Under the pieces are notes generated by a model that worked only from the letters and a program-made list of their open reading frames with translations, was not told where the DNA came from and ran no database searches. DNA of 64,000 nt from a virus (Duplodnaviria; Heunggongvirae; Uroviricota; Caudoviricetes), in IMG/VR virus record IMGVR_UViG_3300021399_000109, positions 94,710 through 158,709 of that record; one strand, written 5' to 3'. Numbering within the stretch: position 1 is the stretch's first letter; each line of letters opens with the position of its first letter. A program made the position numbers and the translations under genes. Shown here one piece after another: positions 2,260-44,976 of this stretch.

Positions 2260-2550
2260 ATGATTTTTTATGAAGGAATAGACCGTCAGATTTATACAGA
2301 TAAAGAATGTACAAAAGAAATTACAAAAGGTTTTAAAGATAATGACGTTTTAATGCTTAGATATATGCCTTTTGCCGTATATGATGAATTTATTGGATTT
2401 TGTTATCCTATTTTAAAATCCTTATTTATGAATTGTAAGTGGTGGAACGTTTATATTAATGATAACAAAGATTTAGTATTGTACAATGAAGATATGGGAG
2501 AAGAAAATTTTTATTTTTTAAAAGATTTAAAAATAACGCTTGACAATTAA
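2260..2550 (+). CDS. hypothetical early protein
   Basis: RBS CAAAAGGAGATTAACCATG. Internal ATG of the ORF-track frame is chosen. Confidence 0.5.
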   Translation: MIFYEGIDRQIYTDKECTKEITKGFKDNDVLMLRYMPFAVYDEFIGFCYPILKSLFMNCKWWNVYINDNKDLVLYNEDMGEENFYFLKDLKITLDN

Positions 2551-2568
2551 ATAAAATTATTATATTAT
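2540..2568 (+). promoter_or_regulatory. sigma70-type promoter
   Basis: TTGACA, 17-bp spacer, TATTAT. Confidence 0.55.
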
Positions 2569-2617
2569 TAAGATACAAACAACAAATAAATTCTTTCAAA
2601 AAAAAGGAGATAAAAAA

Positions 2618-2893
2618 ATGACAGGATTTACTTTTAGATTAGGAAGAAAAGATGTTTTTGTAGAAACTACAGCAAAAAACAAAACAAAAAAATTAGCAGA
2701 AAAAATTCTCTATAAATTAGAGTTGCCAGTAAATCCTGATACAATTAGCGAGGTGCTTTACTGGTTAATGAAAGCTAATTGTGAGATTAAAACGCTCAAT
2801 AATGGCAGACAGTATTATGATATTTATGGAAACAATTTTGGAGGATACGGCAGTTTTCTTGATGACGGTATGACCATTTTAATAAAAGTATAA
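2618..2893 (+). CDS. hypothetical early protein
   Basis: RBS AAAAAGGAGATAAAAAAATG. Terminator follows at 2898-2927. Confidence 0.5.
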   Translation: MTGFTFRLGRKDVFVETTAKNKTKKLAEKILYKLELPVNPDTISEVLYWLMKANCEIKTLNNGRQYYDIYGNNFGGYGSFLDDGMTILIKV

Positions 2894-2940
2894 ATAAAAA
2901 AGGGGAAACCCTTTTTTATTTTTTTATATTTTATTATTTC

Positions 2941-3017
2941 AATTGTTAAAAACAATAATTAATCAATAATAGTTTTTAACAATTAAAAAAAATAAATAAA
3001 AAACAAGTTGTTAAAAA
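2941..3017. repeat. same motif family, 3 copies
   Basis: Copies at 2941, 2972(rc) and 3005. Confidence 0.8.
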
Positions 3018-10722: not shown

Positions 10723-11031
10723 ATGGTCTTATGGTTCGAAAATTATGATGGATATGTTGAAATTAATAACTATGACAATTTAGGAGATATTGTCTTATTT
10801 GTTGAAAATTTTCTTAACAATCGTCTTAAAGAAATTAAAAATAAAAACAATAATTTTAATTTTATTCACAATTATAATAATACATTTTTTACTAAAATCA
10901 ATTTAGATTATGATTATAGTAAAAGAATATTCATGGCAGAAGGAGATGTCCGCATAGAAGGAGAAATTTGGAGAAAAGATACGGTAGATGAACTTAGAGA
11001 AACATATTGTTTTATTGTAGAAAGGTATTAA
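10723..11031 (+). CDS. hypothetical protein
   Basis: RBS AAGGAGAATAAAAAATG. Promoter at 10639-10667. Confidence 0.5.
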   Translation: MVLWFENYDGYVEINNYDNLGDIVLFVENFLNNRLKEIKNKNNNFNFIHNYNNTFFTKINLDYDYSKRIFMAEGDVRIEGEIWRKDTVDELRETYCFIVERY

Positions 11032-17806: not shown

Positions 17807-17878
17807 AGGGCTATAGCCAAGCGGTAAGGCACAGGACTTTGACTCCTGCATTCGTTGGTTCGAATCCAACTAGCCCTG
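17807..17878 (+). tRNA. tRNA-Gln (anticodon TTG)
   Basis: Cloverleaf: acceptor AGGGCTA/TAGCCCT, anticodon stem CAGGA/TCCTG with loop CTTTGAC, T-arm GTTGG-TTCGAAT-CCAAC. Confidence 0.8.
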
Positions 17879-18632
17879 TTTATAGGGTGGATTTCACATC
17901 CTTTAAGATAAACGTAGTAATACGGATAAAGCAATGACCATCCATACAGGTTGTTGCGACTTATAAAAAGAAATTTTTATGAGTTCACTGGAAAATCAAT
18001 ATGGCAGACATCCTATCTAAACCTGAGAGCCAATCGGTGTAAGGCATGGTAGGTTGGGAATCTTGAAATAGGTTCTAAATAATAATCGCAGAAATGCGTG
18101 GATTGCCAATTGCTTTTAGGTACAACTGTCGCAAACGGAAGTGCTTAACTGATTGTGATTTCATATCTTAAATCGAAAGATAGGTATTGTATTACAAATT
18201 ATACTCGCAAAGTGTAAAGGATTGCGGTGAGTGGGCTGTACTCAAAAGGTATAGATGCTCAAACGTATGCCCCGTAATTCATAAAGTGTGGAACTTCAAT
18301 GCTAATGGAGATAAGAAGATAGTGTGAGCAAAAGTGCATACGGCTTACAACTGAAAACTGACTTATTCATCTGAAATATGATGACATGTGGAACTCGCAA
18401 AGTGAAACATGAAGGAGTACAAGTAGATGCAACTCTAACAGCCTGCAAGCTGTGAATCTCGCAAGGAAGAATGTGTTGAACGGAAACTTATGAAGGTGTA
18501 AGCAGTAGTTCTGCCTGTGACCAAAGCAGGTGTCAGTTCATAGCTACAGATTAATCATCTGTGTGACTGGCTTGTTCCAACGCAAGTAAATGCTATGAAA
18601 ATAGGGTCAAAAGTCTCAGCCCTAAAATTTAA
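17879..18632 (+). ncRNA. large structured noncoding RNA candidate (GOLLD/ROOL-class ornate large RNA) between tRNA-Gln and tRNA-Glu
   Basis: About 750 nt with no plausible ORF. GC is visibly higher (about 40%) than the flanks (about 25%). Many local and long-range complementary segments. Repeated ACUCGCAAAGUG-like blocks at about 18203, 18392 and 18464. Flanked by tRNAs and downstream of tandem strong promoters, as reported for GOLLD and ROOL RNAs in phages. Confidence 0.5.
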
Positions 18633-18704
18633 GGTCGGTTAGTCAAGTGGTTAAGACACAAGGTTTTCATCCTTGGAACAGGAGTTCAATTCTCCTACCG
18701 ACTA
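18633..18704 (+). tRNA. tRNA-Glu (anticodon TTC)
   Basis: Acceptor GGTCGGT/ACCGACT, anticodon stem CAAGG/CCTTG with loop TTTTCAT, T-arm AGGAG-TTCAATT-CTCCT. Confidence 0.75.
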
Positions 18705-18757
18705 TTTTCATGTTTGGTTAAAATTAGTTTATTAATAGAGAAAGGGGAAAACAAAAC

Positions 18758-18940
18758 ATGAGTAAGAAAGAGAAAAAGCGAAAAATTAAACTTTATTTTA
18801 AAGACGGAAAAACTGATACTATTCCGCAAAAACTTTGGGATGATTATGAAGTAAATAATGACCTCTTTGTGGTTAAAAAGAATGGTGAGTGGATAGCTTT
18901 TTATAAAATGGAAACTATTGACTGCATGGTAGTCGGTTAA
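18758..18940 (+). CDS. hypothetical small protein
   Basis: RBS AGAAAGGGGAAAACAAAACATG. Lies between tRNA-Glu and the next ORF. Confidence 0.4.
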   Translation: MSKKEKKRKIKLYFKDGKTDTIPQKLWDDYEVNNDLFVVKKNGEWIAFYKMETIDCMVVG

Positions 18941-19004
18941 AATTTTAAAACAGTAAAAGTTAAATCAATTATTAATTAAATATTATCAAACAAAGGAGAA
19001 AAAA

Positions 19005-19646
19005 ATGAAAACAGAAACGATGACAGTACACGAAGCACTTTCAGAAATTAAGGTAGCAGGTAAAAGAATTACATCTACTCTTTTTGAGATGGATGTAGTA
19101 ACAGCTAATAGAAAGAATGCCACTAAAATTAACGGTATTGAACCAGAAAAGTTCAATGCACAAGCAAAGGCAGATTTTCAGTCTGTTACAGACCTTTGGG
19201 CAAGACTTACTGCCATGAAAGCGGCAATTGCTACTTACAATGCTAGTCAGAAAATTACCGTAGGTGATAAGGAATATACAATTGCAGAAGCAATTTATAT
19301 GAAAGAATATGGTATGCCCCTGAAGCAGACTTTTGTTAATACGCTGAATAAGCAGTATCAGAGTGCTGTAAATAAGGTAACAACGGAAAACTCAGACTCT
19401 AAGCTTGGTGCTACTGCTGAAAGACTTGCAACTGCAAGCTTTGGTTCTAAGGATAAGGCTGATGCTGTAGAAATGGAAAAGTTCATTACTACATATAAGG
19501 AAAATAATCAGTTTATTCTGATTGACCCTATTAATGTAAAGGCGATTATTACAGAACTTCAGTCTGAAATTGATACCTTTGAAGCTAAAGTTGATTCTGC
19601 AATTCAGATTGCAAATGCAACACATACAATTACCATTGAATATTAA
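19005..19646 (+). CDS. hypothetical protein (213 aa) inside the tRNA cluster
   Basis: RBS CAAAGGAGAAAAAAATG. Codon usage is more GC-rich than neighbouring genes. Confidence 0.55.
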   Translation: MKTETMTVHEALSEIKVAGKRITSTLFEMDVVTANRKNATKINGIEPEKFNAQAKADFQSVTDLWARLTAMKAAIATYNASQKITVGDKEYTIAEAIYMKEYGMPLKQTFVNTLNKQYQSAVNKVTTENSDSKLGATAERLATASFGSKDKADAVEMEKFITTYKENNQFILIDPINVKAIITELQSEIDTFEAKVDSAIQIANATHTITIEY

Positions 19647-20124
19647 TGGGTATTAAAATATAATAAAAAGGAAACTTTTAATATATATACCCATTAGTGA
19701 CGTAAGCCATAAATAAATGTCTCTTCTTTCTTTTTGAACGGATTAGAATGAAGTAAATAAGTTAAATAAATCCGTTAGCAAGTAAGCTTATATAGACTTA
19801 AAATCTATAAAAAGCAATGGACTTTTAATCCATTTTTACAAAAAAATTAGGGTTGTTTTGTGGTTCTTATCAAAGAAAACAGTTTAGTAATAGATTAGGA
19901 AGATAAGAATGCAAAACGTAAACTAGTTATTAATTACTTGTTATTGACTAATAATTATTGATTAAAGATTATTTATTATTTCTTTATTATTAATTATTGT
20001 CTATTTATTATGGGAACTATTTTTTTCCCATTTAATAATTATAGAATCTACGAAGAAGGTTCTGTGCTGTTAGACATTTTGTAAGCCTTGGCTTCGTCCC
20101 GTAGCAGTCACTAATGGGTATTGT

Positions 20125-20214
20125 GCTAAAGTGGCAGAGTGGTTAAATGCACCTGATTGCTAATCAGGCGGTCACAAATAATGTGGCTCATAGGTTCGAA
20201 TCCTATCTTTAGCG
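20125..20214 (+). tRNA. tRNA-Ser (anticodon GCT), class II with long variable arm
   Basis: Acceptor GCTAAAG/CTTTAGC, anticodon stem CCTGA/TCAGG with loop TTGCTAA, long variable arm, T-arm ATAGG-TTCGAAT-CCTAT. Confidence 0.8.
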
Positions 20215-20493
20215 TTACACATTTTATTTATTTAAAATGCTTATTCTACATAAAGAGTTTGTAGACGATGAATTTGGCATCGTAAAAATCTAGCACACTG
20301 TTACAGTAACAGGATAAACTAACTGAGTGGCTAGACACTTAAAACCAAACAATATAGAACAAAAATTGGAGAGGTTTTTATGAGCCTTTGTACCTGTACA
20401 AGACTTAATTTTTATCTTGAGATGAACTGAAAGCTATAGATGAAAGGGAATCAAAAATAGATTGCTTGGCATGTGCCGTTGAACATGCTAATT

Positions 20494-20567
20494 GGTCTGT
20501 TAGTTCAGTTGGTAGTAACACATGTCTGTTAAACATGGGGTCGTAGGTTCAAGTCCTACACAGACCG
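20494..20567 (+). tRNA. tRNA-Asn (anticodon GTT)
   Basis: Acceptor GGTCTGT/ACAGACC, anticodon stem CATGT/ACATG with loop CTGTTAA, T-loop TTCAAGT. Confidence 0.75.
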
Positions 20568-20726
20568 TTCCTGCTGACATTTTTAATATCTGTCAGTGTT
20601 TTGAATATTTTTGTTCATTTCCTTTCTTTGTAGGCTTGGGGAGAAGCCCCTGTAAGTAGTTGATAGTTAAACAATAACCTAAAGTAAATTAAAAAAGGCA
20701 AATATAAATAATAACAAATAATATAA

Positions 20727-20800
20727 TGGGCATTAGCACAACGGTATGAGTGCAGGTGGCTTATAACCATCCGATAAGAGTTCGACTCTCTTATGCCCGA
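20727..20800 (+). tRNA. tRNA-Ile (anticodon TAT; decodes AUA)
   Basis: Acceptor TGGGCAT/ATGCCCG, D-stem GCAC/GTGC, anticodon stem GGTGG/CCATC with loop CTTATAA (TAT at 20762-20764), T-arm AAGAG-TTCGACT-CTCTT. Confidence 0.65.
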
Positions 20801-20805
20801 TTTTA

Positions 20806-20891
20806 GCTTGTATGGCAGAGTTGGCTTAATGCACCAGTCTTGAAAACTGGCAATCCAATTGGATTCGTAGGTTCAAATCCTACTGCAAGCG
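20806..20891 (+). tRNA. tRNA-Ser (anticodon TGA), class II
   Basis: Near-paralog of the Ser(GCT) gene. Anticodon stem CCAGT/ACTGG with loop CTTGAAA, long variable arm, T-loop TTCAAAT. Confidence 0.8.
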
Positions 20892-20921
20892 TTAACTATT
20901 TTTATTTAAGAGGATGGGGAA

Positions 20922-21296
20922 ATGAAGATTAATTGGTTAAGTGAAACATTACTTACTTATGAAGAAGCAATGGAATTATTAGAGCATTCTCATAAGAAAC
21001 GCTTAGAAATGGAAGATAAAAATAAATGGGACGCATATGTAAATGATTTTACATTCTACACATTTCTTAATGATACTTATGGATATATGCTTGATGAGGT
21101 TAAAAAAGAAATTGATATTAATAAGAAAAGTTATTATCCGAAAGTAAAAGAATTATTAGATTGGGAAATATTTTTAAATAAAAGTGATAAATTAATGGAG
21201 GATATTTTAAGAGATAAACCAGAAGGAAAAGATAATATTTGGGAGATTGTAGAAGATTGGTGGAAAATGTTATTTAAATTATTATATGATTGTTAA
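20922..21296 (+). CDS. hypothetical protein (124 aa) flanked by tRNA 3' end repeats
   Basis: RBS AAGAGGATGGGGAAATG. Flanked by tRNA-Ser(TGA) 3' end and a 16-bp copy of that end. Confidence 0.5.
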   Translation: MKINWLSETLLTYEEAMELLEHSHKKRLEMEDKNKWDAYVNDFTFYTFLNDTYGYMLDEVKKEIDINKKSYYPKVKELLDWEIFLNKSDKLMEDILRDKPEGKDNIWEIVEDWWKMLFKLLYDC

Positions 21297-21351
21297 TTTA
21301 AATTATTAATTTATCTACATAGGTTCAAATCCTGTTATTTCTCATTAATTT

Positions 21352-21422
21352 AGGTTGGTAGTACAATGGTAGTACAACGGTCTCCAAAACCGAAAATAGG
21401 GGTTCGATTCCTCTCCTTCCTG
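21352..21422 (+). tRNA. tRNA-Trp-like (anticodon CCA) with imperfect acceptor stem (possible pseudo-tRNA)
   Basis: D-arm GTAC-AATGGTA-GTAC, anticodon stem ACGGT/ACCGA with loop CTCCAAA, T-arm AGGGG-TTCGATT-CCTCT. Acceptor AGGTTGG/CCTTCCT has two central U-U mismatches. Confidence 0.5.
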
Positions 21423-21585
21423 CGCCCCCAGTGATAGGAATGGGTAACTTACTCTATCCGTGTGATATTTGATTCTTTTAACTACGACAACGTAAGAATT
21501 TGGTTAATCTTTTTACTGTTTTCTACGTCAGATAAGTTCACCAAGAAAACAGTTTTTAATTTTATAAGGATAATGTTTTTTATCA

Positions 21586-21660
21586 CGGAATGTAGCAAAG
21601 TGGTTTTTCTGCACACGACTTTTAATCGTGTTTACGTGGGTTCGAATCCCACCATTCCGA
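21586..21660 (+). tRNA. tRNA-Lys (anticodon TTT)
   Basis: Acceptor CGGAATG/CATTCCG, anticodon stem CACGA/TCGTG with loop CTTTTAA, T-arm GTGGG-TTCGAAT-CCCAC. Confidence 0.8.
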
Positions 21661-21662
21661 TT

Positions 21663-21750
21663 AGCCTCATAGTATAATGGAAGACGTTTTAAGCATGTAG
21701 TACACCCTATGGTTTTTGGGAGGTGCAGGTTCGATTCCTGCTGAAGGCTG
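21663..21750 (+). pseudogene. tRNA-like element / degenerate class II tRNA (anticodon not assignable)
   Basis: Good T-arm GCAGG-TTCGATT-CCTGC and a partial acceptor (AGCCT...AGGCT). I could not fold a consistent D-arm or anticodon arm by eye. Confidence 0.3.
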
Positions 21751-21768
21751 TAAGAAAGGAATTAAAAA

Positions 21769-21975
21769 ATGAAAAAAGAAGATTTGGATAAACGTATTTA
21801 TGATGTAGAACCTAATGAGATTTGTACGATGACTTATCGTGAGTATATAGATTGGGGATATGCCGAATTAGGTTATTCAAAAAAAACGGTTGAACAAATG
21901 TTAGACTTAGATAAAATGTCGGAAGATATGTTAAATGATGTATTAGAAGAACTTGATTGGCTATTGAGCAAATAG
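21769..21975 (+). CDS. hypothetical small protein
   Basis: RBS AAGAAAGGAATTAAAAAATG. Confidence 0.4.
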   Translation: MKKEDLDKRIYDVEPNEICTMTYREYIDWGYAELGYSKKTVEQMLDLDKMSEDMLNDVLEELDWLLSK

Positions 21976-21988
21976 GTAAATATATAAA

Positions 21989-22333
21989 ATGTATTATAAA
22001 GATTTTCAAGAAAAAATAATTACAATAATAGATAATGATTATATATTAAATTATAATAATCATACTTTTGATAATAGTTTTATGGAAGTTAATTCTTATG
22101 AAATGTGGCAACATATGAATAAGGATAAACTAAAAATAATTGGAATTAGTTTTAATCCGCCTTATGGTCATTATAGTTATAAAGACGTAGCTTTTGTATT
22201 TAAAGATATAAACAATGAAATATTTTGGATACATCTTACAAGAATCAGTTGGGAACATTATGTTCTTAGTGCCTTTGGAAAAGAAGACGGAGATAAAATT
22301 ATTACTGAAATATATAATAAATATAAAGTATAA
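21989..22333 (+). CDS. hypothetical protein
   Basis: ORF follows closely after the previous gene. Confidence 0.4.
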   Translation: MYYKDFQEKIITIIDNDYILNYNNHTFDNSFMEVNSYEMWQHMNKDKLKIIGISFNPPYGHYSYKDVAFVFKDINNEIFWIHLTRISWEHYVLSAFGKEDGDKIITEIYNKYKV

Positions 22334-22355
22334 AATATAAAAGGAGATAAATGAT

Positions 22356-22583
22356 ATGGAATTTAAAAGAGACATGAGTAAAAACAAAAAGAAAGCACCG
22401 ACAGATTATAAAGTTAATGATAGAGTTTTGGTGTTAACTGGTGATAATAAAGATAAAGTTGGTGTAGTAAAAGGACATTATGATGCTAATCTTATCTTAG
22501 AATTTAAGGGGAACGATGAAATGCCGACTTATACAGATAAAGTTCATTATGCCGAAGTAATCAGATGGTTTGATTGGAGTTAA
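22356..22583 (+). CDS. hypothetical protein
   Basis: RBS AAAAGGAGATAAATGATATG. Confidence 0.45.
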   Translation: MEFKRDMSKNKKKAPTDYKVNDRVLVLTGDNKDKVGVVKGHYDANLILEFKGNDEMPTYTDKVHYAEVIRWFDWS

Positions 22584-22617
22584 GTGAAATAGATAAAAAA
22601 ATTTTTTAAAAAAAAGC

Positions 22618-22646
22618 TTGACAAATTGTTAATTATGTGTTAGTAT
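22618..22646 (+). promoter_or_regulatory. sigma70-type promoter upstream of tRNA(TAA) and the TnpB/Cas12f-like gene
   Basis: TTGACA, 17-bp spacer, TAGTAT. Followed by hairpin TGTCAGATGAAGCGAAACATCTGACA at 22654-22679. Confidence 0.55.
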
Positions 22647-22685
22647 TAATAGTGTCAGATGAAGCGAAACATCTGACAATTATAT

Positions 22686-22761
22686 GCTCCCGTAGCCCAA
22701 TTAGGCAGTAGGCACAGGACTTAAAATCCTTTCAGTATGGGTTCGAATCCCATCGGGAGTA
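22686..22761 (+). tRNA. tRNA with anticodon TAA (Leu, UUA codon) but short variable arm; discriminator A
   Basis: Acceptor GCTCCCG/CGGGAGT, anticodon stem CAGGA/TCCTT with loop CTTAAAA, T-arm ATGGG-TTCGAAT-CCCAT. Preceded by promoter 22618-22646 and a hairpin. Confidence 0.6.
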
Positions 22762-35837: not shown

Positions 35838-36833
35838 ATGAATGAAGCAATTTTAAAACCATATATAAGGGCAGTAGACCCAAAAAAAGATAAAGACTTA
35901 CCAGTTTATTCTCACAGTGGAATTGAACAGTATTTGAATTGTCCTTATGCTTTTAATTTAAAATATAATGAGGATAAAAAGACGGATGATACAACATTAG
36001 CTTTAGAATTAGGGTCATTATTACATAAGATTTTAGAAATTAAAGGTCATTGGGTGCATTTAGGTATTGACATTGACTATGATATGTTGTATAATACAAT
36101 AGAAGTCGGTTATGAAGAGAAAGATGAAAAGACGCAAGAAAAATTAAGAGGTATCAAAGCTTTAAAACGTTCTTATTTTGATGATTGGTATGCAAGAGAT
36201 AATGCGTCAGGAATGACATATGAAGATAAAATAAAATTATTTAAAGCAACTGTTCTTAAAAATGAAATGGCAAACAGTAAATGGAAACCAGTTTATTTTG
36301 AATTACCATTTGAGTTTGTTTGGAATAACAGATGTATTATACACGGCTTTATAGACCGTGTTGATATAAAGGATGGTGAGTTTAGAGTTGTAGATTATAA
36401 AACAAGTAAAAAGGTTTTTGATGATGCAAAAGTTAAAACCAGTCAACAGTTTGGAATTTATGCTTGTGCTATTTTAAATATGTTTGGGAAACTGCCTATA
36501 GAATATGAATATGATTTTATTCTTTTAAATCAAACACAGCAAGCTATGTCAAAAGGTTGGGAAAAGCGTTTTATTAAGAAGATTGAGAAAGCTTTAGATA
36601 GCATTGATAAAAGTAATGCCACTAAAGTATTTAATCCTAAACCCTGTCCTTTATGTTATTGGTGTAATTATTGTACTACAAATCCCAATGCTAAAGAATA
36701 CAAAGATGAATGCGATTATTATAGTTTGTGGACACCGACAGAAAAAAAGTTTTCTGTGAATAAGGAATTTAATATTTTAGAATACAAAAAACAAAAAGAA
36801 GAACCTAAAGAAAAGCGTAAAATTATTTTTTAA
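35838..36833 (+). CDS. PD-(D/E)xK exonuclease with C-terminal Cys4 cluster (Cas4/RecB-like)
   Basis: IHGFIDRVDI...VVDYKTSKK nuclease core. C-terminal CPLCYWCNYC. Confidence 0.7.
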   Translation: MNEAILKPYIRAVDPKKDKDLPVYSHSGIEQYLNCPYAFNLKYNEDKKTDDTTLALELGSLLHKILEIKGHWVHLGIDIDYDMLYNTIEVGYEEKDEKTQEKLRGIKALKRSYFDDWYARDNASGMTYEDKIKLFKATVLKNEMANSKWKPVYFELPFEFVWNNRCIIHGFIDRVDIKDGEFRVVDYKTSKKVFDDAKVKTSQQFGIYACAILNMFGKLPIEYEYDFILLNQTQQAMSKGWEKRFIKKIEKALDSIDKSNATKVFNPKPCPLCYWCNYCTTNPNAKEYKDECDYYSLWTPTEKKFSVNKEFNILEYKKQKEEPKEKRKIIF

Positions 36834-37697: not shown

Positions 37698-40205
37698 ATG
37701 AGTTACATTGGGATACATAATCATACGGATATTGGTAGTAATCATGAGTTCCGTGATTCAATTAATAAAGTAAAAGATTTAATTGATTATGCACATTCGC
37801 TTGGACATAAGGGTATTTGCATAACTGACCATGAATCTTTATCTGCTCATTTTAAAGCTTTAGATTATTATGAATCTAAAATGGGCGAAGAAGATTGGAA
37901 AGATTTTAAAATTGGATTAGGAAATGAAATTTATTTATGTCCTGATTTTGTTACAGCAGAAAATATAGGGAATAATTTTTATCCCCACTTTATTTTAATT
38001 GCTCTTGATGCTTTTGGGCATAAAGGATTACGTGAATTAAGTACAAAAGCATGGACTGAAAATTGTTTTTATTCTAAATGGAATAGAGTTCCTACTTATT
38101 ATAATGATTTGGCTGAAATGTTAGATGTGTATAGAGGACATATTATTGGGTCAACAGCCTGTCTTGGGTCTAGCATTAATAGACAATTACTTCAATATAA
38201 AGAAAATCCTTCAGAAGATATAGTTGTGCGTATTCGTCAATGGTTAGCATTTATGGTTGATATTTTTGGAGAAGAAAATTTCTTTATTGAACTTCAGCCC
38301 AATCCTAGTGAAGAACAGGTTTTTTGTAATCAAAAATTACTTGAATTTGCACAGGAATATAATCTTCCTTATATTATTTCTACTGATGCACACTATCTTA
38401 AAAAAGAAGATAGAGCAATTCATAAGGCTTATATTACAGCAAACAAAGAAGATGACAGAGAAGTGGATTATTTTTATCAGACTACTTATGTAATGTCAGA
38501 AGAAGAAATTCATTCTTATATGGATGGGTATTTAGGCTATGATATTGTCCAAAAAGGTATTGATAATACAATGCTTATTTATGATAGACTTGAATATTAC
38601 TCCATGAAAAAGGATTTGGAAATTCCTTTTCTTCCGCTTGATAGAACTGAACCTGATAAAAAATTAATAGATAAATATAGTAAACATATTCCTTTATTAC
38701 GAGAATTTGCTGAATCTGAATACGAATCTGATAGACATATGATTCGTGAAATGCTCAAAGGTATTGAAAAAGATGAAGTATATCAAACAGAAAGAGGATA
38801 TAACGCTACCAATGAATGTTTATCTTATATAAAACAATCTTCTGAAAAAATGGGAGTTAGATGGTCAGCATATCTTGACCAAATGGCAGATTACGTTAAT
38901 ATTATTTGGGATTGCGGTAGTGTTGTAGCTGTAGGTCGTGGTTCTGTTATTGGTTTTTGTATTGCTAATCAAATGGGAATCACACAGATTAATCCTTTAA
39001 GAGAAAATACAGCTACATTTCCTTGGAGATTCTTAAATCCAGAACGGGCAAGTATACTTGATATTGATACAGATGTTAATCCTATTTTTAGAGATAAGAT
39101 TATAAATAGATTTAAAGAAATTTATGGTGCTGATAAAGTATCCAAAGTTCTTACTTATTCTACTGAAAAAAGTAGGAGTGCTATATTAACGGCAGGTCGT
39201 GGTATTGGACTTGATAATGATTTAACTTCTTATATTGCTTCTTTGGTAGTGTTTGATAGAGGTAATCCTCGTTCATTAAAAACAATGTACTATGGTGACG
39301 AAGATAACAAACCTGTTCAAGAGTTTGTCAATGAAATGAATGAGCATCCTGACCTTTGGGAAACTGCCCAAAAACTGGAAGGTCTTTGTTCAGGTATTGG
39401 TTCTCATGCAGGTGGGGTTATTATTTGTGATAAATCGTTAATTGATACTTGTGCGTTAATTCGAACTAAATCTGGGGATGTAATTACTCAATATGACCTC
39501 CATGAAGATGAAGCAATGAGTCTTATCAAGATTGACCTCTTAGCTACTAATGCAGTATCTAAGATTCAAGAGTGTCTGGAACTGTTATTAGATAAAAGTA
39601 AGATTGAATGGCAAGGTAGTCTTCGTGATACATATGAAAAATATATTGGTGTATATAATCTTGAAAGATATGCTGAAGATATGTGGAAATTGTTATGGGA
39701 ACATAAAGTTATTAGTGCTTTCCAAATGGAAAAAGAATCAGGAAAACAAGCATTAGCTTTAGTTAAACCACATTCTGTAGATGACTTAGCGACTATTAAT
39801 TCTGTTATACGACTTATGCCGCAGGAAAAAGGGGCTGAAACTCCATTAAGTAAATTTGCAAGATTCCATGAAGATATTACCGAATGGTATCAAGAAATGA
39901 CAGATTATGGATTAACAGAAGAGGAACAGAATATTCTTAAAAATATTATTGGTGTTTCGTATGGTATTTGCGAAGCACAAGAATATTTAGTTCTTTTAAC
40001 AACACATCCTGATATAGGTGGTTTTAGTTTATCTTGGGCAGACTCTTTACGTAAAGCTGTTGCAAAAAAGAATCCTAAAGCATTTGATGAATTAGAAAAA
40101 CAGTTTTTTGAAAATGCGGTTGAAAAAGGATTAAGTAAGAATTTAGTTAATTATGTTTGGAATGTATTAATTAAAACTCAGCGTGGGTACGGGTTAAATC
40201 TTTAA
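37698..40205 (+). CDS. dnaE: DNA polymerase III alpha-type (DnaE-like) polymerase, N-terminal portion (PHP, palm, fingers), interrupted
   Basis: PHP motifs GIHNHTDIGS...H. The ORF ends ...QRGYGLNL* inside the conserved GYxFNKSH region. The continuation is at 41326. Confidence 0.8.
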   Translation: MSYIGIHNHTDIGSNHEFRDSINKVKDLIDYAHSLGHKGICITDHESLSAHFKALDYYESKMGEEDWKDFKIGLGNEIYLCPDFVTAENIGNNFYPHFILIALDAFGHKGLRELSTKAWTENCFYSKWNRVPTYYNDLAEMLDVYRGHIIGSTACLGSSINRQLLQYKENPSEDIVVRIRQWLAFMVDIFGEENFFIELQPNPSEEQVFCNQKLLEFAQEYNLPYIISTDAHYLKKEDRAIHKAYITANKEDDREVDYFYQTTYVMSEEEIHSYMDGYLGYDIVQKGIDNTMLIYDRLEYYSMKKDLEIPFLPLDRTEPDKKLIDKYSKHIPLLREFAESEYESDRHMIREMLKGIEKDEVYQTERGYNATNECLSYIKQSSEKMGVRWSAYLDQMADYVNIIWDCGSVVAVGRGSVIGFCIANQMGITQINPLRENTATFPWRFLNPERASILDIDTDVNPIFRDKIINRFKEIYGADKVSKVLTYSTEKSRSAILTAGRGIGLDNDLTSYIASLVVFDRGNPRSLKTMYYGDEDNKPVQEFVNEMNEHPDLWETAQKLEGLCSGIGSHAGGVIICDKSLIDTCALIRTKSGDVITQYDLHEDEAMSLIKIDLLATNAVSKIQECLELLLDKSKIEWQGSLRDTYEKYIGVYNLERYAEDMWKLLWEHKVISAFQMEKESGKQALALVKPHSVDDLATINSVIRLMPQEKGAETPLSKFARFHEDITEWYQEMTDYGLTEEEQNILKNIIGVSYGICEAQEYLVLLTTHPDIGGFSLSWADSLRKAVAKKNPKAFDELEKQFFENAVEKGLSKNLVNYVWNVLIKTQRGYGLNL

Positions 40206-41343
40206 TTAGACCCTCTTATACAGTAATGTATATTAAAAAACTCTTTAAATTGCGGGAAACTCCTTAGAGCATTAGTAACCAAGTTTAATTAGTAATAATT
40301 AAATGGCAAATAGTAATGTATTTGGTAAGGTAACAGCACTAATGATTGGACAATCCGCATCAAAATCTCTCAAACAAATTGTATAGAAATGGAGGGAAAA
40401 TGGGATGTAAAAGATTAAGTGATGAAGACGAAAAAAAACTTGTGGACGAATATTTAAAAGGTGTTGCTGTTAAACAATTAATGATTAAATATGGTTTTGC
40501 AAGTAAAAAGTCTATAATAGATAAAGTAAAGAAGTATTATCCAAATTATAAAGAGATGTTAGAACAGGCTAAAGAAAATCGAAAAACATATTCATTAGAT
40601 TTATCAAAAATTGATAGTCCATTTAATGCGTATCTTATTGGATTATTATTAACAGATGGCTATATTATTGATAATAATAAATTTGGTTTGCAATTAACAG
40701 ATGAAGATTGTATTCGATTTATTTCTGAAGCAACTAATAATCCATATTATTCGTATAAAACAAAAGAATATAAAACAGAATATAGAATTGTATTTAGTGG
40801 CTCTCAATATATTGAGCAATTAAAAAGATATAATATTACTGCGAAAAAATCATATACTGTTAAAGGATTTGATTTTTATGAGGACGAAATTAAATATATC
40901 CCTTTTTTAATTCGTGGAATTATTGATGGGGACGGATGTATTCATAAAACTACTAAAGGAAGTGTAAGTTTTTATATTTGTTCAATGTCTTATGACTTTA
41001 TTTTATGGATACAAGAAATATTGGAAAAACGGTTTTTTATGGAAGATACTCATATAAAACAAAGTAATATAAATAATATTTGGATAGTTGAAACTTCTTT
41101 ACAAACTAATATTTTTAAATTAATGGCAATTGTTTATGACAGACCTTATGGTATGTCTCGTAAATATAATTGTTTGAGAGAGATGTTCAGAGACTATAAT
41201 AAGAGTAACCAACAAAATTTTATTTGGAATGATGTTGGTTAATGGTATAGTCCAGACCGCAACCTTAACAGGGCTTGGGAAACCAAGTGCGGTAAAGTAA
41301 TAAGTCCCATACACTTGCTTATTCAATGATTCTTTTGCAAGAA
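40203..41343 (+). mobile_element. 1.14-kb insertion carrying a LAGLIDADG homing-endonuclease gene (group I intron-like or free-standing HEG cassette) splitting dnaE; flanked by 9-bp direct repeat TTAAATCTT
   Basis: TTAAATCTT at 40194-40202 and 41344-41352. Removing the segment plus one repeat copy restores an in-frame ...RGYGLNLNYRWNPIYWQTANL... The flanks are GC-richer and structured (paired segments AATTGCGGG/CCGCAT and ACCGCA...TGCGGT, TAGTCC after the HEG). Confidence 0.6.
40400..41242 (+). CDS. LAGLIDADG homing endonuclease (two-motif type)
   Basis: Two LAGLIDADG motifs, AYLIGLLLTDGYI and FLIRGIIDGDGCI. RBS-like AATGGAGGGAAAATGGGATG. Confidence 0.75.
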   Translation: MGCKRLSDEDEKKLVDEYLKGVAVKQLMIKYGFASKKSIIDKVKKYYPNYKEMLEQAKENRKTYSLDLSKIDSPFNAYLIGLLLTDGYIIDNNKFGLQLTDEDCIRFISEATNNPYYSYKTKEYKTEYRIVFSGSQYIEQLKRYNITAKKSYTVKGFDFYEDEIKYIPFLIRGIIDGDGCIHKTTKGSVSFYICSMSYDFILWIQEILEKRFFMEDTHIKQSNINNIWIVETSLQTNIFKLMAIVYDRPYGMSRKYNCLREMFRDYNKSNQQNFIWNDVG

Positions 41344-42720
41344 TTAAATCTTAATTATAGATGGAATCCTATTTATTGGCAAACAGCTAATCTTATTGTA
41401 GATTCTGGTTCGTTGGACAATAATTCAAATGATGCTACAGATTATGGCAAGATAGGTATTGCGATTGCAAATATTAAAAAAGAAAATGTTAATATTGAAA
41501 TTCCATTAATTAATGAAGCAGGATTTGGTTTTGAACCCGATGAAAATAATAACAGAATTATTTTTGGCTTAAAAGCAATAAATGGAATCAACACTGAAAT
41601 TTCACAAGCAATTATTCAAAACCGTCCATATAGTTCCATGGAAGATTTTGCAAGTAAACTTTTAGATACTGGAATTATTAAAAATGCTCAAATGATTAAA
41701 CTAATTAAAGCAGGTTGTTTTACTGAACTTCATAGTCCTAATAAAGAGATTACAATGGAATGGTATTTAAGAAATTATAAATATAATCCACTTAAAAAAT
41801 TAACACTAAGTCAGTTACCTGCTTTAAGAGAGAAAAAACTTATTCCAGAAGCTTTTGACAAGTGTGTCAAGATATTAATTTTAAAAGATTACATCTTAGA
41901 CGATGAAGGATTTTATGCTAATTATATTGACCCTAATAAGAAACCTTTAAAACGTGGTTATCATGATAGATATTATATTTTAGATGATAATAGTCAACCT
42001 ATTTTTAAAGATTATTTTTCTGAGAATTGTATAGTTGGAGTACAAGGGGAATATTTTTTAGTTTCAGAAAAACAGATTGATAAAGAAGCCAAAGTATTTA
42101 TAGAACCTTTCAGAGAGTGGATGAATAGTGCTGATGCTATTAATAGATATAATTTAAGTTGTTTCTTAGATGTATGGGAACAATATGCAAGTGGAAATAA
42201 AGCACATTGGTCTATGGAGTCTTTGACTTATTATGACGAAGAACACGAATTAGAAAATGTAAACGAATCTTTATATGGAATAGTTAACTTCTTTGATTTA
42301 CCTGAAGAACCTGTAGCGTATGATTGGTATACAAGATGGATTAACGGTGAAAGAAAAGTATTTCCTAAATATAATATTAGTCGTATAGCAGGTACAGTGA
42401 TTAATGCAGATAATAATCATCATATGGTATCTTTATTAACTAAATATGGATTAGTTAATGTAAAAATGAATAAAGGACATTATGCCTTTTATAATAAACA
42501 GATTTCTCAAATTGATGAAGATAATAAAAATAAAAAACATAAAATAGAAGATAGTTGGCTTAAACGTGGTCAGATGATTATTGTTTCTGGCATTAGAATG
42601 GGGGATACTTTTTATCCCAGAATTTATAATGATACAATTTATAAACATACAGTTAGTTTAATTAAAGAAGTTAATAAAAATGGAACTTTATTATTACAAA
42701 ATGAAAGGACAAAAATATAA
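41326..42720 (+). CDS. dnaE: DnaE-like polymerase, C-terminal portion
   Basis: Begins MILLQELNLNYRWNPIYWQTANL, which overlaps the LNL at the end of the N-portion and matches the ...AYALxAYQTAYLK region of PolIII alpha. Confidence 0.7.
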   Translation: MILLQELNLNYRWNPIYWQTANLIVDSGSLDNNSNDATDYGKIGIAIANIKKENVNIEIPLINEAGFGFEPDENNNRIIFGLKAINGINTEISQAIIQNRPYSSMEDFASKLLDTGIIKNAQMIKLIKAGCFTELHSPNKEITMEWYLRNYKYNPLKKLTLSQLPALREKKLIPEAFDKCVKILILKDYILDDEGFYANYIDPNKKPLKRGYHDRYYILDDNSQPIFKDYFSENCIVGVQGEYFLVSEKQIDKEAKVFIEPFREWMNSADAINRYNLSCFLDVWEQYASGNKAHWSMESLTYYDEEHELENVNESLYGIVNFFDLPEEPVAYDWYTRWINGERKVFPKYNISRIAGTVINADNNHHMVSLLTKYGLVNVKMNKGHYAFYNKQISQIDEDNKNKKHKIEDSWLKRGQMIIVSGIRMGDTFYPRIYNDTIYKHTVSLIKEVNKNGTLLLQNERTKI

Positions 42721-44976
42721 ATGAATAATACAAATAATGAATCTATTAGTTGTATTGCTACAGTTGAAAGAATCAGGTATTATAAAGATAATTTTGGGAT
42801 TATTGTTTGTTCAGTTGATAGGATTGATTCAGGTGAATTAGACGAAGATATTCGGGAAGACGAAGTTATTTTTAAAGGCACTATGCCTACTCCTATTGTT
42901 GGTAATATGTATAATATTACTGCTGATTATATTGAAGACCCTAAGTGGGGGGGACAATATAATATTAAAGCTATGTTTACTGCGGTATCATTTGATACCG
43001 CAGATGGCAAAAAAAGATTTTTGTCAAGTATTTTTACAGAATATCAAATTGATGCCATGTATGAAGCTTTAGATGACCCATTTGATGCTCTTCAAAATGA
43101 AGACTATAATAAACTTGTACAAATTAAAGGATGTGGCTTAAAGACAGCTTCTACATGGGTAGAAAGATTTAAAGAAAATATTAATTTAGCAAAAATATTT
43201 CTTGAATTAAAAGATTATGATTTAACTAATGCTATGGTAGATAAATTGCTTGAAAAATATCATTCACCAGACCTTATTGTAGATAAAGTAAAGAACAATC
43301 CTTATGTTTTATGTACTGAAGTTAATGGAATTGGTTTTAAAAAAGCTGATGAAATTGCTTTAAAAGGTGGAATTGGACTTTATAGTACAGCAAGAATTGG
43401 TGCTTTTATTCAATATTATTTATCTAATTGCGGAGAAAATGGGCAATCATGGATTACTCCTGACCATTTATTAGGAGCGATTCTTGATACATTAGGAGAA
43501 GATGTTCCTGATAAAAATATATCAGAAACAATAAGCGAATTAATTGAAAATAATATATTGTGGCACAATGAAGATAAAAGTAAAATAGGATTACGTTATT
43601 ATTACGATTTAGCTACTAATATTGCTACAGAATTAATTCGGTTAAGAAATGCTAAATGTGATTTTTCTTATGATAATTGGGAAGAAGTAGTAAAACATAA
43701 TGAAAACGTACAAGGATGGGAATATACAGATGAACAGTTAAATGCCATTAAATCTGCTTTTAATAATAATGTTATTATTATCACTGGATATGGTGGAACT
43801 GGTAAAACACAAACAGTATCTGCAATTCTAAATATATTTAAAAATAATTCTCATGCTTTATGTGCTTTATCTGGAAAAGCTTCTTCTATCTTAGGTGAAT
43901 ATACAGGAGAAGAGGGTTCTACTATTCATAGATTATTGGGATTCGGGAATGATGGATTTATTTATGATTCTGAAAATCAACTTCCATATGATATTATTGT
44001 TGTAGATGAAATTTCTATGATTGGAGCAAGATTATTTTATTTTTTAATTCGAGCAATTAAATCTGGTGCAAAATTAATCATGTTAGGTGATGATGGACAG
44101 CTTGAGAGTATTGGCTGTGGTAATGTTGCTAATAATATGCTTAATTCTCCTGAGATTCATCATAATATTTTAACAAAAATACATAGACAGGCATCAAAAT
44201 CAGCTATTATTACTGAAAGTATTAAAGTCAGACAAGGAACTCAACTTATTAGTAAGGAATGGGCAGGAAAAGAAACAAGGGGTGAATTGCAGGATTTTGA
44301 TTTAATTTGTTATTCTGATGCCAATAATACTTATTATAAAGTTATAGAAGAATTTCAGAAACTTAGGACGAAAGATGATTTTGATATTATGGAAACACAA
44401 ATTATTGTTCCTGTTAAAAATAGAGGAATGGCTTGTACAAGTGAATTAAATAATATTTTACAAGAGTTATGTAATCCATCTGATGGAAGAAAAGTGCAAG
44501 TGACAGTACGCAGAAATGGACGTAATCAAATTATTCGTGAAGGCGATAAAGTAATTTGTAAAAAAAATAATTATAAAGTTGAACCAAATATTTTTAATGG
44601 AAACACTGGTATTTTAAAAGCAATTACATATAATGATTTTGATGACGAAGTATGGATTATTGATTTTAAAGGAATTGGTATTGTAGAATTACCTAAAAAG
44701 TATTGGGGAACAATAGAATTAAATTATTGTGGAACAGTACATTCAAATCAAGGTTCGCAGTATAATAATATTATTATTGGACTTGATTTTTCTTCCTATA
44801 GTTTATTGACCAGAGAACTTGTATATACAGCTATTACAAGAGCAAAGAAAAAATGTATTATGATTGCACAAAATTCTGCTCTTCGGTATGCTGTAGGTAA
44901 TAAAGCATTGTCACAAAAACAAACACATTTAGTTGAAGCTTTACATGATGTAGCGCACCCTAAACTTGTGTTCTAA
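42721..44976 (+). CDS. RecD-like / Dda-like SF1 DNA helicase
   Basis: Walker A ITGYGGTGKT. Walker B IIVVDEISMI. C-terminal GTVHSNQGSQY. Confidence 0.75.
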   Translation: MNNTNNESISCIATVERIRYYKDNFGIIVCSVDRIDSGELDEDIREDEVIFKGTMPTPIVGNMYNITADYIEDPKWGGQYNIKAMFTAVSFDTADGKKRFLSSIFTEYQIDAMYEALDDPFDALQNEDYNKLVQIKGCGLKTASTWVERFKENINLAKIFLELKDYDLTNAMVDKLLEKYHSPDLIVDKVKNNPYVLCTEVNGIGFKKADEIALKGGIGLYSTARIGAFIQYYLSNCGENGQSWITPDHLLGAILDTLGEDVPDKNISETISELIENNILWHNEDKSKIGLRYYYDLATNIATELIRLRNAKCDFSYDNWEEVVKHNENVQGWEYTDEQLNAIKSAFNNNVIIITGYGGTGKTQTVSAILNIFKNNSHALCALSGKASSILGEYTGEEGSTIHRLLGFGNDGFIYDSENQLPYDIIVVDEISMIGARLFYFLIRAIKSGAKLIMLGDDGQLESIGCGNVANNMLNSPEIHHNILTKIHRQASKSAIITESIKVRQGTQLISKEWAGKETRGELQDFDLICYSDANNTYYKVIEEFQKLRTKDDFDIMETQIIVPVKNRGMACTSELNNILQELCNPSDGRKVQVTVRRNGRNQIIREGDKVICKKNNYKVEPNIFNGNTGILKAITYNDFDDEVWIIDFKGIGIVELPKKYWGTIELNYCGTVHSNQGSQYNNIIIGLDFSSYSLLTRELVYTAITRAKKKCIMIAQNSALRYAVGNKALSQKQTHLVEALHDVAHPKLVF

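Follow-up and report, generated by a model that had tools for sequence, protein, structure and literature searches.

A probable mobile group I intron with its own LAGLIDADG homing endonuclease gene in the DnaE/YorL-type DNA polymerase gene of a tailed phage

The stretch of DNA analysed here, 64,000 nucleotides (nt) of a tailed phage (Caudoviricetes) from positions 94,710 to 158,709 of the IMG/VR record IMGVR_UViG_3300021399_000109 (hereafter the window), contains at 37698-42720 three consecutive open reading frames (ORFs), each in a different frame, for the N-terminal part of a DNA polymerase, a LAGLIDADG endonuclease and the C-terminal part of a DNA polymerase. We consider it very probable that this region is one gene, coding for a C-family (DnaE/YorL-type) phage DNA polymerase and interrupted after U40195, and we hold with equally high confidence that the interrupting element is a mobile group I intron of 1102 nt (40196-41297, first base A40196, terminal guanosine G41297) carrying its own LAGLIDADG homing endonuclease gene (HEG). 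The intron was delimited from its presence/absence polymorphism among relatives, the restoration of the polymerase ORF, its core structure, covariation and flanking matches to hidden Markov models (HMMs). An earlier note on this DNA, made from the letters alone, had recognized the N-portion, the C-portion and a two-motif LAGLIDADG ORF between them, and ORF mapping and Pfam searches confirmed all three at the positions given there. All exon and intron features described below lie on the + strand.

The polymerase gene and its uninterrupted relatives

The N-terminal ORF (37698-40205, 835 amino acids) carries the Pfam domains PHP, DNA_pol3_alpha and DNA_pol3_finger, ends in RGYGLNL before its stop codon and is in a frame different from those of the other two ORFs, while the C-terminal ORF (41326-42720, 464 amino acids) starts with MILLQELNLNYRW and carries the domain HHH_6. 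Joining of position 40195 to 41298 yields a single ORF of 1306 amino acids that reads ...KTQRGYG/FNKSHTLAYSMILLQELNLNYRW... (a slash marks a splice junction here and below), the junction itself being RGYG/FNKSHTLAYSM. Exon 1 covers 37698-40195 (833 codons minus one base, ending in CGT GGG TAC GGG TT) and exon 2 covers 41298-42720, starting with U AAU AAG UCC CAU, which corresponds to (F)NKSH; the predicted junction of the ligated exons reads ...CGUGGGUACGGGUU/UAAUAAGUCCCAUAC.... When all in-frame joins of the type U/...G/ near the ORF ends were enumerated, 40195/41298, with G41297 as the last intron base, was the only one to restore GYGFNKSH. Exon 1 is colinear with YorL of phage SPbeta, and its 3' boundary was set by the intron-less alleles. 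Both exons, like the HEG, are under purifying selection.

A 200-residue segment spanning the junction matched 419 phage records as one piece, with SPbeta YorL as the best match among deposited phage genomes (52% identity in the junction region). The spliced product was aligned with four homologs, namely YorL (1305 amino acids), the polymerase of Enterococcus phage 9183 (1284 amino acids) and C-terminal fragments from Staphylococcus and Mammaliicoccus phages, and the alignment was free of gaps at the junction, where the window reads GYGFNKSHTLAYSMILLQELNLNYRW and YorL reads GYSFSLLHTLAYSIIALQELNLNYRY.

The comparison with intron-less homologs that the earlier note had proposed was also made at the DNA level. 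Eleven of 14 related loci in IMG/VR (58-95% amino acid identity) read through the site uninterrupted, the spliced-junction DNA aligning across it without a break, over all 300 nt in the closest relatives. Their empty sites read ...GGxTAyGGnTT/TAAyAAATC..., and the intron-less site of locus L008 reads ...CGTGGATATGGTTTTAATAAATCCCACACACTT.... Loci L011 (99%) and L014 carry an intron at the identical position. The L014 intron, of 1108 nt, is about 95% identical to that of the window and the exons about 86%, with exon 2 reaching 96% in its first 100 nt; greater conservation of the intron than of the exons, together with such a tract in exon 2, fits the pattern that would be expected of horizontal homing with co-conversion. 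No match was obtained for the whole region by megablast against 50,697 phage records, and for the insert a distant blastn search yielded no more than two short hits of marginal quality; a scan of genome contigs revealed no relative as a prophage copy.

The sequence immediately 5' of the ATG of the C-terminal ORF (41326), overlooked in the first reading, encodes FNKSHTLAYS in frame and without a stop, and this orphan segment is conserved in all seven diverged copies of the interrupted gene available for this site. It bears on another arrangement entertained in the earlier note, in which a free-standing HEG would have invaded the polymerase gene and polypeptides of 835 and 464 residues would assemble non-covalently. 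The pair of long ORFs separated by a stop and the ATG at 41326 are compatible with that arrangement, gene callers annotate related contigs in exactly this way, and a phage nrdA gene fragmented by an HEG is reportedly re-assembled at the protein level. The ten conserved residues FNKSHTLAYS, however, would then belong to neither polypeptide and are nevertheless kept in 7/7 copies. The ATG has no Shine-Dalgarno sequence upstream and, judging from the uninterrupted homologs, in which a Met is conserved at the same internal position, it is an internal Met codon and not a start. Moreover, what flanks the HEG is a complete, covarying group I ribozyme whose internal guide covaries with exon bases, which is sensible only if P1 and P10 are used (see below). 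With these observations contradicting it, we regard a genuinely two-polypeptide polymerase as very improbable.

The element had also been described as 1141 nt long and bounded on both sides by a 9-bp target duplication. Copies of the 9-mer, TTAAATCTT, are indeed present at 40194-40202 and 41344-41352, the ATG of the C-terminal ORF lying 18 nt upstream of the second, and identical 9-mers near both ORF ends could be taken for the target-site duplication of a transposon or insertion-sequence-like element that left the polymerase inactivated or a pseudogene. The first copy straddles the 5' splice site, which falls after its second base (TT/AAATCTT), and coincides with no structural boundary. The second copy is within exon 2, 47 nt downstream of the 3' splice site, and codes for a conserved Leu-Asn-Leu; since YorL also has L-N-L at this position (LQELNLNYR), this copy is ordinary conserved exon-2 sequence. 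The 9-mer occurs at chance level, with eight copies in the window against 5.9 expected, and in this sequence of 28% GC an exact 9-mer is shared by 7-17% of randomly drawn pairs of segments (60-100 nt long, about 1.1 kb apart). TTAAATCTT is absent from the insertion site in all intron-less alleles, which have at most the exon-2 copy at +47. A target-site duplication is therefore lacking, and the repeat at the edges is a coincidence. A splice junction within the repeated 9-mer, as had been suggested, fares no better, for removal of the inter-repeat segment gives GYGLNLNYRW and deletes 16 conserved residues (FNKSHTLAYSMILLQE). No transposase is present, selection on the exons and on the HEG is purifying, and the layout persists across lineages whose HEGs are 49-59% identical. 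Insertion of a transposon with target-site duplication was rejected on the basis of the empty sites, ...GGnTT/TAAyAAATC..., which do not have TTAAATCTT at that point, and we put its probability close to nil.

Detection, structure and covariation of the intron RNA

The Rfam model Intron_gpI (RF00028) produced two partial matches flanking the endonuclease ORF, at 40251-40394 (P4-P6) and at 41106-41277 (P7, P3', P8 and J8/7). The matches are split and below threshold because the ORF, of about 790 nt in L6, divides the model, and the same limitation of Rfam with ORF-bearing introns was met in a survey of Bastillevirinae introns (PMC11878797). A permissive Rfam scan of loci L004, L002, L011 and L014 together returned nothing at E ≤ 0.01, so that even the intron-bearing L011 and L014 went unrecognized once a larger amount of sequence was scanned. 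As Rfam alone was weak, relatives of the intron were sought. The P3-P4 motif AAATTGCGGGAAACTCC was found in at least 120 viral contigs, and the 5' domain of the intron is 65-74% identical to sequences in 91 of these loci; 11 of the 91 were scanned and gave 22 Rfam Intron_gpI matches of 52-104 bits, above the 50-bit cut-off. HMMs built solely from 12 independent ORF-less introns were then searched against the 64-kb window. The 5' domain HMM had one match, at 40243-40370 (E = 7.3e-22), and the 3' domain HMM (dom3) also had one, at 41179-41254 (E = 0.015), both on the + strand and in order on either side of the ORF. With the same HMMs, L011 and L014 were matched as well, whereas SPbeta and the intron-less alleles gave nothing. 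Several related ORF-less group I introns were seen within a few kb of one another in L092, L103, L041, L024 and other IMG/VR loci with the P3-P4 motif; L092 has 12 Rfam-level group I matches in 13.8 kb, and giant-virus bins are among such multi-copy contigs.

The minimum free energy (MFE) fold of an ORF-deleted mini-intron contained P1, P2, the P4-P6 domain, P8 and P9. RNAalifold, applied with the 12 independent introns, recovered P3, P4, P5, P5a-c, P6 and P8, with compensatory changes in 36 of 45 pairs. After addition of the P7 pseudoknot, 95.9% of the cells were paired. Shuffles gave 72%, with none of 500 as high as the real alignment, and slid partners gave 35-45%. Changes on both sides were seen at 38 of the 51 pairs, and all 51 can form in the window. 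The seven introns known at this same site (1093-1116 nt) all restore GY[GS]FNxSH at U/...G/ boundaries and were used for a full P1-P10 model of 89 pairs, in which 94.4% of the cells were paired, compared with 79.8% in shuffles (0/500) and 32-44% with slid partners. This model has 41 compensatory pairs, P1 and P10 included, and all of its helices form in the window.

In P1 (40191-40213) the exon bases GGGUU (40191-40195) pair with GACCC (40209-40213) of the internal guide; U40195·G40209 is the wobble pair that marks the 5' splice site, and the loop holds the stop codon TAA (40203-40205) of the exon-1 frame. The pairing, including the U·G, is kept in 7/7 same-site introns. Locus L148 has AGUUU for GGGUU in the exon and GAACC for GACCC in the guide, a compensation of G-C by U-A. 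Six of the seven intron-bearing alleles compared (window, L014, L140, L141, L144 and L146) have GGG as the Gly codon that precedes the splice site, and L011 has it too; in L148 the codon at this position is AGU, for Ser, matched by the altered guide. The eight intron-less alleles shown have GGT, GGC, GGA or TCG there and never GGG. The P10 half of the guide, AUUA (40205-40208), pairs with the exon-2 bases UAAU (41298-41301), and in L146 and L148, where exon 2 starts with C for U, the guide has G for A (U-A to C-G).

The P2 hairpin UAUACA-GUAA-UGUAUA (40217-40232) was given by the MFE fold and shows a C-G to U-A compensation in L141 and L148. A same-site intron without it occurs in L144 (Logan SRR12730746 contig), where P3 follows almost directly after GACCC and the rest of the core is kept, so P2 appears dispensable in that lineage. 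The 5' strand of P3, ACUCUU (40240-40245), pairs with AAGAGU (41201-41206), with five of six pairs changing on both sides; both strands were found by RNAalifold. P4 (UGCGGG/UCCGCA), P5, P5a, P5b and P5c occupy 40251-40359, as indicated by the partial Rfam match, the HMM match and covariation, with a U-A to C-G change in P5c of L014. The strands of P6, AUCUCUCAAACAA (40365-40377) and UUGUUUGAGAG(AG)AGAU (41170-41184), change on both sides at six of 13 pairs and enclose the endonuclease gene, which places the ORF in L6.

Downstream of the ORF loop, J6/7 (GUUCA) is followed by the 5' strand of P7, GAGACUA with a bulged A (41190-41196), which pairs with UAGUCC (41248-41253). The first strand is covered by the partial Rfam match and the second, located after J8/7 (AAUGGUA), by Rfam and the dom3 HMM; J6/7 with GAGACUA and J8/7 with UAGUCC match the Rfam consensus, and P7 covaries among the relatives (G-C for A-U, C-G for G-C). 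The P8 hairpin AACCAAC ... GUUGGUU (41207-41240) was indicated by the partial Rfam match, the MFE fold and covariation, and the stop codon of the endonuclease (TAA, 41240-41242) begins on its last base. P9 (ACCGC/GCGGU), P9a and P9b (CUUGG-GAAA-CCAAG), followed by AAAG, fill 41256-41297 in the MFE fold and end in G41297; compensatory changes were seen in this region in L014, L140, L141, L144 and L148, and the terminal G is conserved in 7/7 same-site introns. The element therefore displays the sequence and structural features expected of a group I intron, namely a P3-P4-P6/P7-P3'-P8 core with its P3/P7 pseudoknot, the U·G pair in P1, a terminal G, P10 and restoration of the frame. Of the alternatives offered in the earlier note, the group I intron is thus the one borne out, by the boundaries, the ribozyme core, the covariation and the intron-less alleles.

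The intron-encoded endonuclease

The endonuclease gene (40400-41242, 280 codons plus stop) is located in the P6 loop, with a Shine-Dalgarno sequence, GGAGG (40391-40395), 4 nt upstream of its ATG; this ATG is taken as the real start because the consensus of the homologs begins with MGYKxLS. The protein contains the motifs LIGLLLTDGY and LIRGIIDGDGC, with acidic residues conserved at both motif ends; among 52 homologs, D86, G87, D176 and G179 do not vary and D178 is kept in at least 90%. It matched Pfam LAGLIDADG_3 with 33.2 bits (cut-off 22.5 bits) and PHROG 4645, 'endonuclease', with E = 1.5e-23, while a sequence search of the PDB gave no meaningful match and NCBIfam gave none. An AlphaFold model from the single sequence was unusable (predicted local distance difference test score, pLDDT, 39.7), and a model based on the alignment of the 52 homologs was taken instead (AlphaFold2; pLDDT 86.8, predicted template modelling (TM) score 0.86). 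In the latter, a domain of four helices at the N terminus is followed by two alpha-beta-beta-alpha-beta-beta-alpha units (H74-86 E E H E E H135-144 and H161-178 E E H E E H235-245). The top 50 matches listed by Foldseek against the PDB were all LAGLIDADG enzymes, with probability 1.0, and include I-AniI, the bI3 maturase, I-Tsp061I, I-SmaMI, I-OnuI and I-SceI. The ratio of nonsynonymous to synonymous substitution rates was 0.15 against L014, by which measure the gene is under purifying selection.

LAGLIDADG_3 is common in inteins and the top Foldseek match is an intein-associated endonuclease, which would suit a fractured gene in which the HEG separates two intein halves and the polymerase halves are joined by protein splicing in trans; a layout of DnaE N-part, HEG and DnaE C-part exists in marine metagenomes (PMC2677866). 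A split intein needs an N-intein of about 88-105 residues plus a C-intein half (PMC2677866). The N-terminal ORF, however, continues for only three codons past the break in homology and the exons abut without a gap; neither ORF has a Hint or other intein domain in Pfam, the three ORFs are in three frames, and the non-coding sequence on either side of the HEG is ribozyme. A split intein was rejected for want of room for its halves and of a Hint domain, and we find it extremely improbable. The earlier note had argued against an intein from the different frames and the stop codon, an argument that holds and gains from the absence of a Hint domain.

The last 24 or so codons of the endonuclease also specify P6', J6/7, P7, P3' and P8, and residues 266-280, whose codons form P7, P3' and P8, are the only disordered part of the AlphaFold2 model; these codons are probably constrained more by RNA than by protein. 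Translation and folding could therefore compete, P1 is only 5 bp long, and the maturases I-AniI and bI3 are among the nearest solved structures of intron-encoded proteins. The element might accordingly be a group I intron by descent that no longer self-splices, either decaying or strictly dependent on protein, for instance on its own LAGLIDADG protein as maturase. Set against this, every core helix is intact (51/51 consensus pairs, all P1-P10 helices formed), the compensatory changes show ongoing selection for pairing, and the exons of a presumably essential polymerase are conserved. We judge loss of self-splicing quite improbable, and dependence on a maturase would refine the explanation as a mobile group I intron rather than contradict it.

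Endonuclease homologs numbered 573 at E ≤ 1e-5, almost all of them unnamed. Those looked up (six, 49-59% identity) all sit between a PolIII-alpha N-part of 828-843 residues and an HHH_6 C-part, with a RecD2 helicase downstream in three of the six contigs; the homolog contigs reach 200 kb, the largest being from human gut metagenomes. By analogy with other homing enzymes, the protein presumably cleaves the intron-less polymerase allele at the sequence coding for GYGFNKSH.

Other interruptions of replication genes were encountered among these relatives. The only homolog of the endonuclease in a GenBank phage (36.7% identity; L139, 3225-4373, Dulem virus 36, PP511521) lies between two coding sequences both annotated 'polymerase/primase', in what looks like another interrupted replication gene, and no Rfam group I match was obtained there at E ≤ 1. 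In two gut contigs of 171 and 165 kb (L146, 1175-2156, and L148, 1131-2140) the polymerase has a second, upstream interruption with a GIY-YIG ORF, between the PHP/pol3_alpha and pol3_alpha/finger parts and roughly where the dnaE of a Staphylococcus phage is split, so that at least two insertion sites exist in these DnaE-type genes. In that SPbeta-like Staphylococcus phage (L004, NC_029119), dnaE is annotated as dnaE_2 and dnaE_1, which together are colinear with YorL and are separated by a 462-nt gap (2546-3007) at the catalytic LP/DIDID motif (here the slash marks the break). The gap holds CAACGACTA and TATAGTC, resembling the J6/7-P7 and J8/7-P7' of group I introns, and gave no Rfam match at E ≤ 1 and only E = 2.8 with the HMMs from ORF-less introns; it may represent an intron of a different subgroup that escaped annotation.

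Regarding the neighbourhood of the polymerase gene in the window, a PD-(D/E)xK nuclease-like ORF (35838-36833) is found upstream, with two small ORFs in between, and a RecD2-type helicase gene downstream (42721-44976, Pfam). This replication module of nuclease-like ORF, polymerase and helicase is kept in related gut-phage contigs. Nine tRNA genes are clustered at 17807-22761 (+ strand), along with a tenth, borderline match at 21664-21749 (28.7 bits, cut-off 29 bits), a cluster that fits a large phage genome. A sub-threshold Rfam match to the L31-Firmicutes ribosomal protein leader at 10908-10945 (29.8 bits against 33.3, E = 0.033) is probably due to chance.

Proposed mechanism, meaning and comparison with known systems

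In the mechanism that we propose, the intron RNA would fold into a canonical group I ribozyme, with P1 (GGGUU/GACCC) and a P3-P9 core containing the P3/P7 pseudoknot, while the guide AUUA would pair with the first four bases of exon 2 in P10. Free guanosine would attack after U40195 and exon 1 would then attack after G41297, so that the ligated mRNA would be translated into one polymerase of 1306 residues with GYGFNKSH rebuilt across the junction. Ribosomes translating exon 1 would be halted in the P1 loop, three codons beyond the 5' splice site, and hence would be kept off the ribozyme core, and the 280-residue single-chain endonuclease would be made from its own ribosome-binding site in the P6 loop. 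The endonuclease would cut intron-less alleles, and double-strand-break repair from an intron-bearing copy would spread the intron by homing. Both a stop codon in frame soon after the intron begins and a preference for DNA polymerase genes have been described for phage group I introns (PMC3984707).

Several points weigh against this interpretation. The sequence data establish where the intron begins and ends, that its removal repairs the reading frame and the motif, the covarying RNA architecture, the fold and selective constraint of the endonuclease and the polymorphism among alleles; splicing, cleavage and homing are what we infer from established group I intron and homing biology, and the target and activity of the endonuclease are predictions. 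The partial Rfam matches in the window reached only 17 and 20 bits against the 50-bit cut-off, and an Rfam scan of the whole window (gathering level, E ≤ 1) returned tRNAs and noise and no group I match. The 3' domain HMM match (E = 0.015) is weak if taken alone. P4 and most of P7 are invariant and hence uninformative for covariation, and the P1-P10 structure was taken from the window row, which biases the slid-partner control in favour of the structure and leaves the compensatory counts unaffected.

A further reading goes beyond the mobile intron as such, and we offer it tentatively, as an idea with a modest chance of being correct: the intron and its LAGLIDADG gene might be an undescribed, ancient and site-faithful pair that co-evolved with the C-family polymerases of large gut phages at GYGFNKSH, with a protein that may act as a maturase like I-AniI. 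Given that the C-terminal codons of the HEG are at the same time ribozyme core (P6', P7, P3', P8), translation of the HEG and folding of the ribozyme would in that reading be mutually exclusive and, if so, would constitute a built-in switch between production of the homing enzyme and expression of the polymerase.

The earlier note had called such an interruption unusual for a dnaE-type gene. We found no published group I intron in a phage DnaE/YorL-type polymerase, a weak negative in view of the incomplete coverage of the literature, and to this extent the statement stands; the same intron and HEG at the same GYGFNKSH site, on the other hand, are common in metagenomes. The consequences are most immediate for annotation, as gene callers report, in the window and on many metagenomic contigs alike, two polymerase fragments and a hypothetical protein where the correct gene model would be one polymerase of 1306 residues and an intron-encoded endonuclease. 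The finding adds the C-family (DnaE/YorL-type) to the polymerase genes in which phages carry group I introns and leaves the understanding of how such elements work unchanged. Presence and absence of the intron at 94-95% polymerase identity, together with the co-conversion-like tract, point to ongoing homing in natural phage populations. With its 573 homologs, the family offers many unexplored single-chain LAGLIDADG enzymes whose target, the intron-less site coding for GYGFNKSH, can be predicted, and it could interest meganuclease engineers.

Phage DNA polymerase genes that contain group I introns with HEGs have been familiar from textbooks since SPO1. Such introns reportedly occur in polymerase genes of SPO1 (I-HmuI), Bastille (I-BasI), T7-like phages, Pf-WMP3 (I-PfoP3I) and Bastillevirinae. 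The host genes in these cases are of family A (Pol I-type), and their HEGs are mostly of the HNH or GIY-YIG type. The present intron resembles the phage polymerase introns in that its HEG occupies a peripheral loop, a stop in frame follows soon after the 5' splice site and close relatives differ in its presence (PMC3984707, PMC11878797). Phage intron HEGs in general are mostly GIY-YIG, HNH, PD-(D/E)xK or EDxHD (PMC3984707), and the Bastillevirinae survey reported only one LAGLIDADG HEG, in an intron of the phrog_17 DNA polymerase gene (PMC11878797). Unlike the classic introns, the one described here is in a C-family (DnaE/YorL-type) gene and carries a double-motif LAGLIDADG HEG with an extra N-terminal helical domain.

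In the td and nrdB introns of T4, the HEG ORF is looped out from P6 and has its own ribosome-binding site, and early stops shield the ribozyme core. The placement of the ORF in P6 is the same here, whereas the T4 HEGs are of the GIY-YIG or HNH type, and, unlike in T4, the last 24 or so codons of the ORF also code for P6', J6/7, P7, P3' and P8. SPbeta, the phage with the best-matching polymerase, has group I introns as well as an intein among its replication-related genes, bnrdE/bnrdF (PMC8270828); its introns are in ribonucleotide reductase genes and its yorL is uninterrupted, in contrast to the YorL-type gene of the window. DnaE encoded in two pieces, in some cases with an HEG between them, is known from fractured genes and from the split DnaE inteins of cyanobacteria (Dassa et al. 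2009; PMC2677866). Those inteins join proteins, whereas the window has no intein halves and joining would take place at the RNA level.

Essential genes split by group I introns and endonuclease genes have been described in gut jumbo ('Jug') phages, which are rich in introns and whose DNA polymerase genes are often interrupted by endonuclease sequences, with splicing confirmed by metatranscriptomes (PMC12880540). Those phages belong to a different clade of 360-402 kb with Bacteroides or Phocaeicola as predicted hosts, and the text consulted makes no mention of the present intron, HEG or site. With respect to the protein, the model of the window endonuclease has the same two-domain fold as the intron-encoded I-AniI, bI3 maturase and I-Tsp061I (Foldseek probability 1.0, TM score about 0.5), from which it differs in sequence, with only 14-16% identity, in its extra N-terminal helical domain of about 60 residues and in its host, which is a phage and not, as for those three, a mitochondrion or an archaeon.

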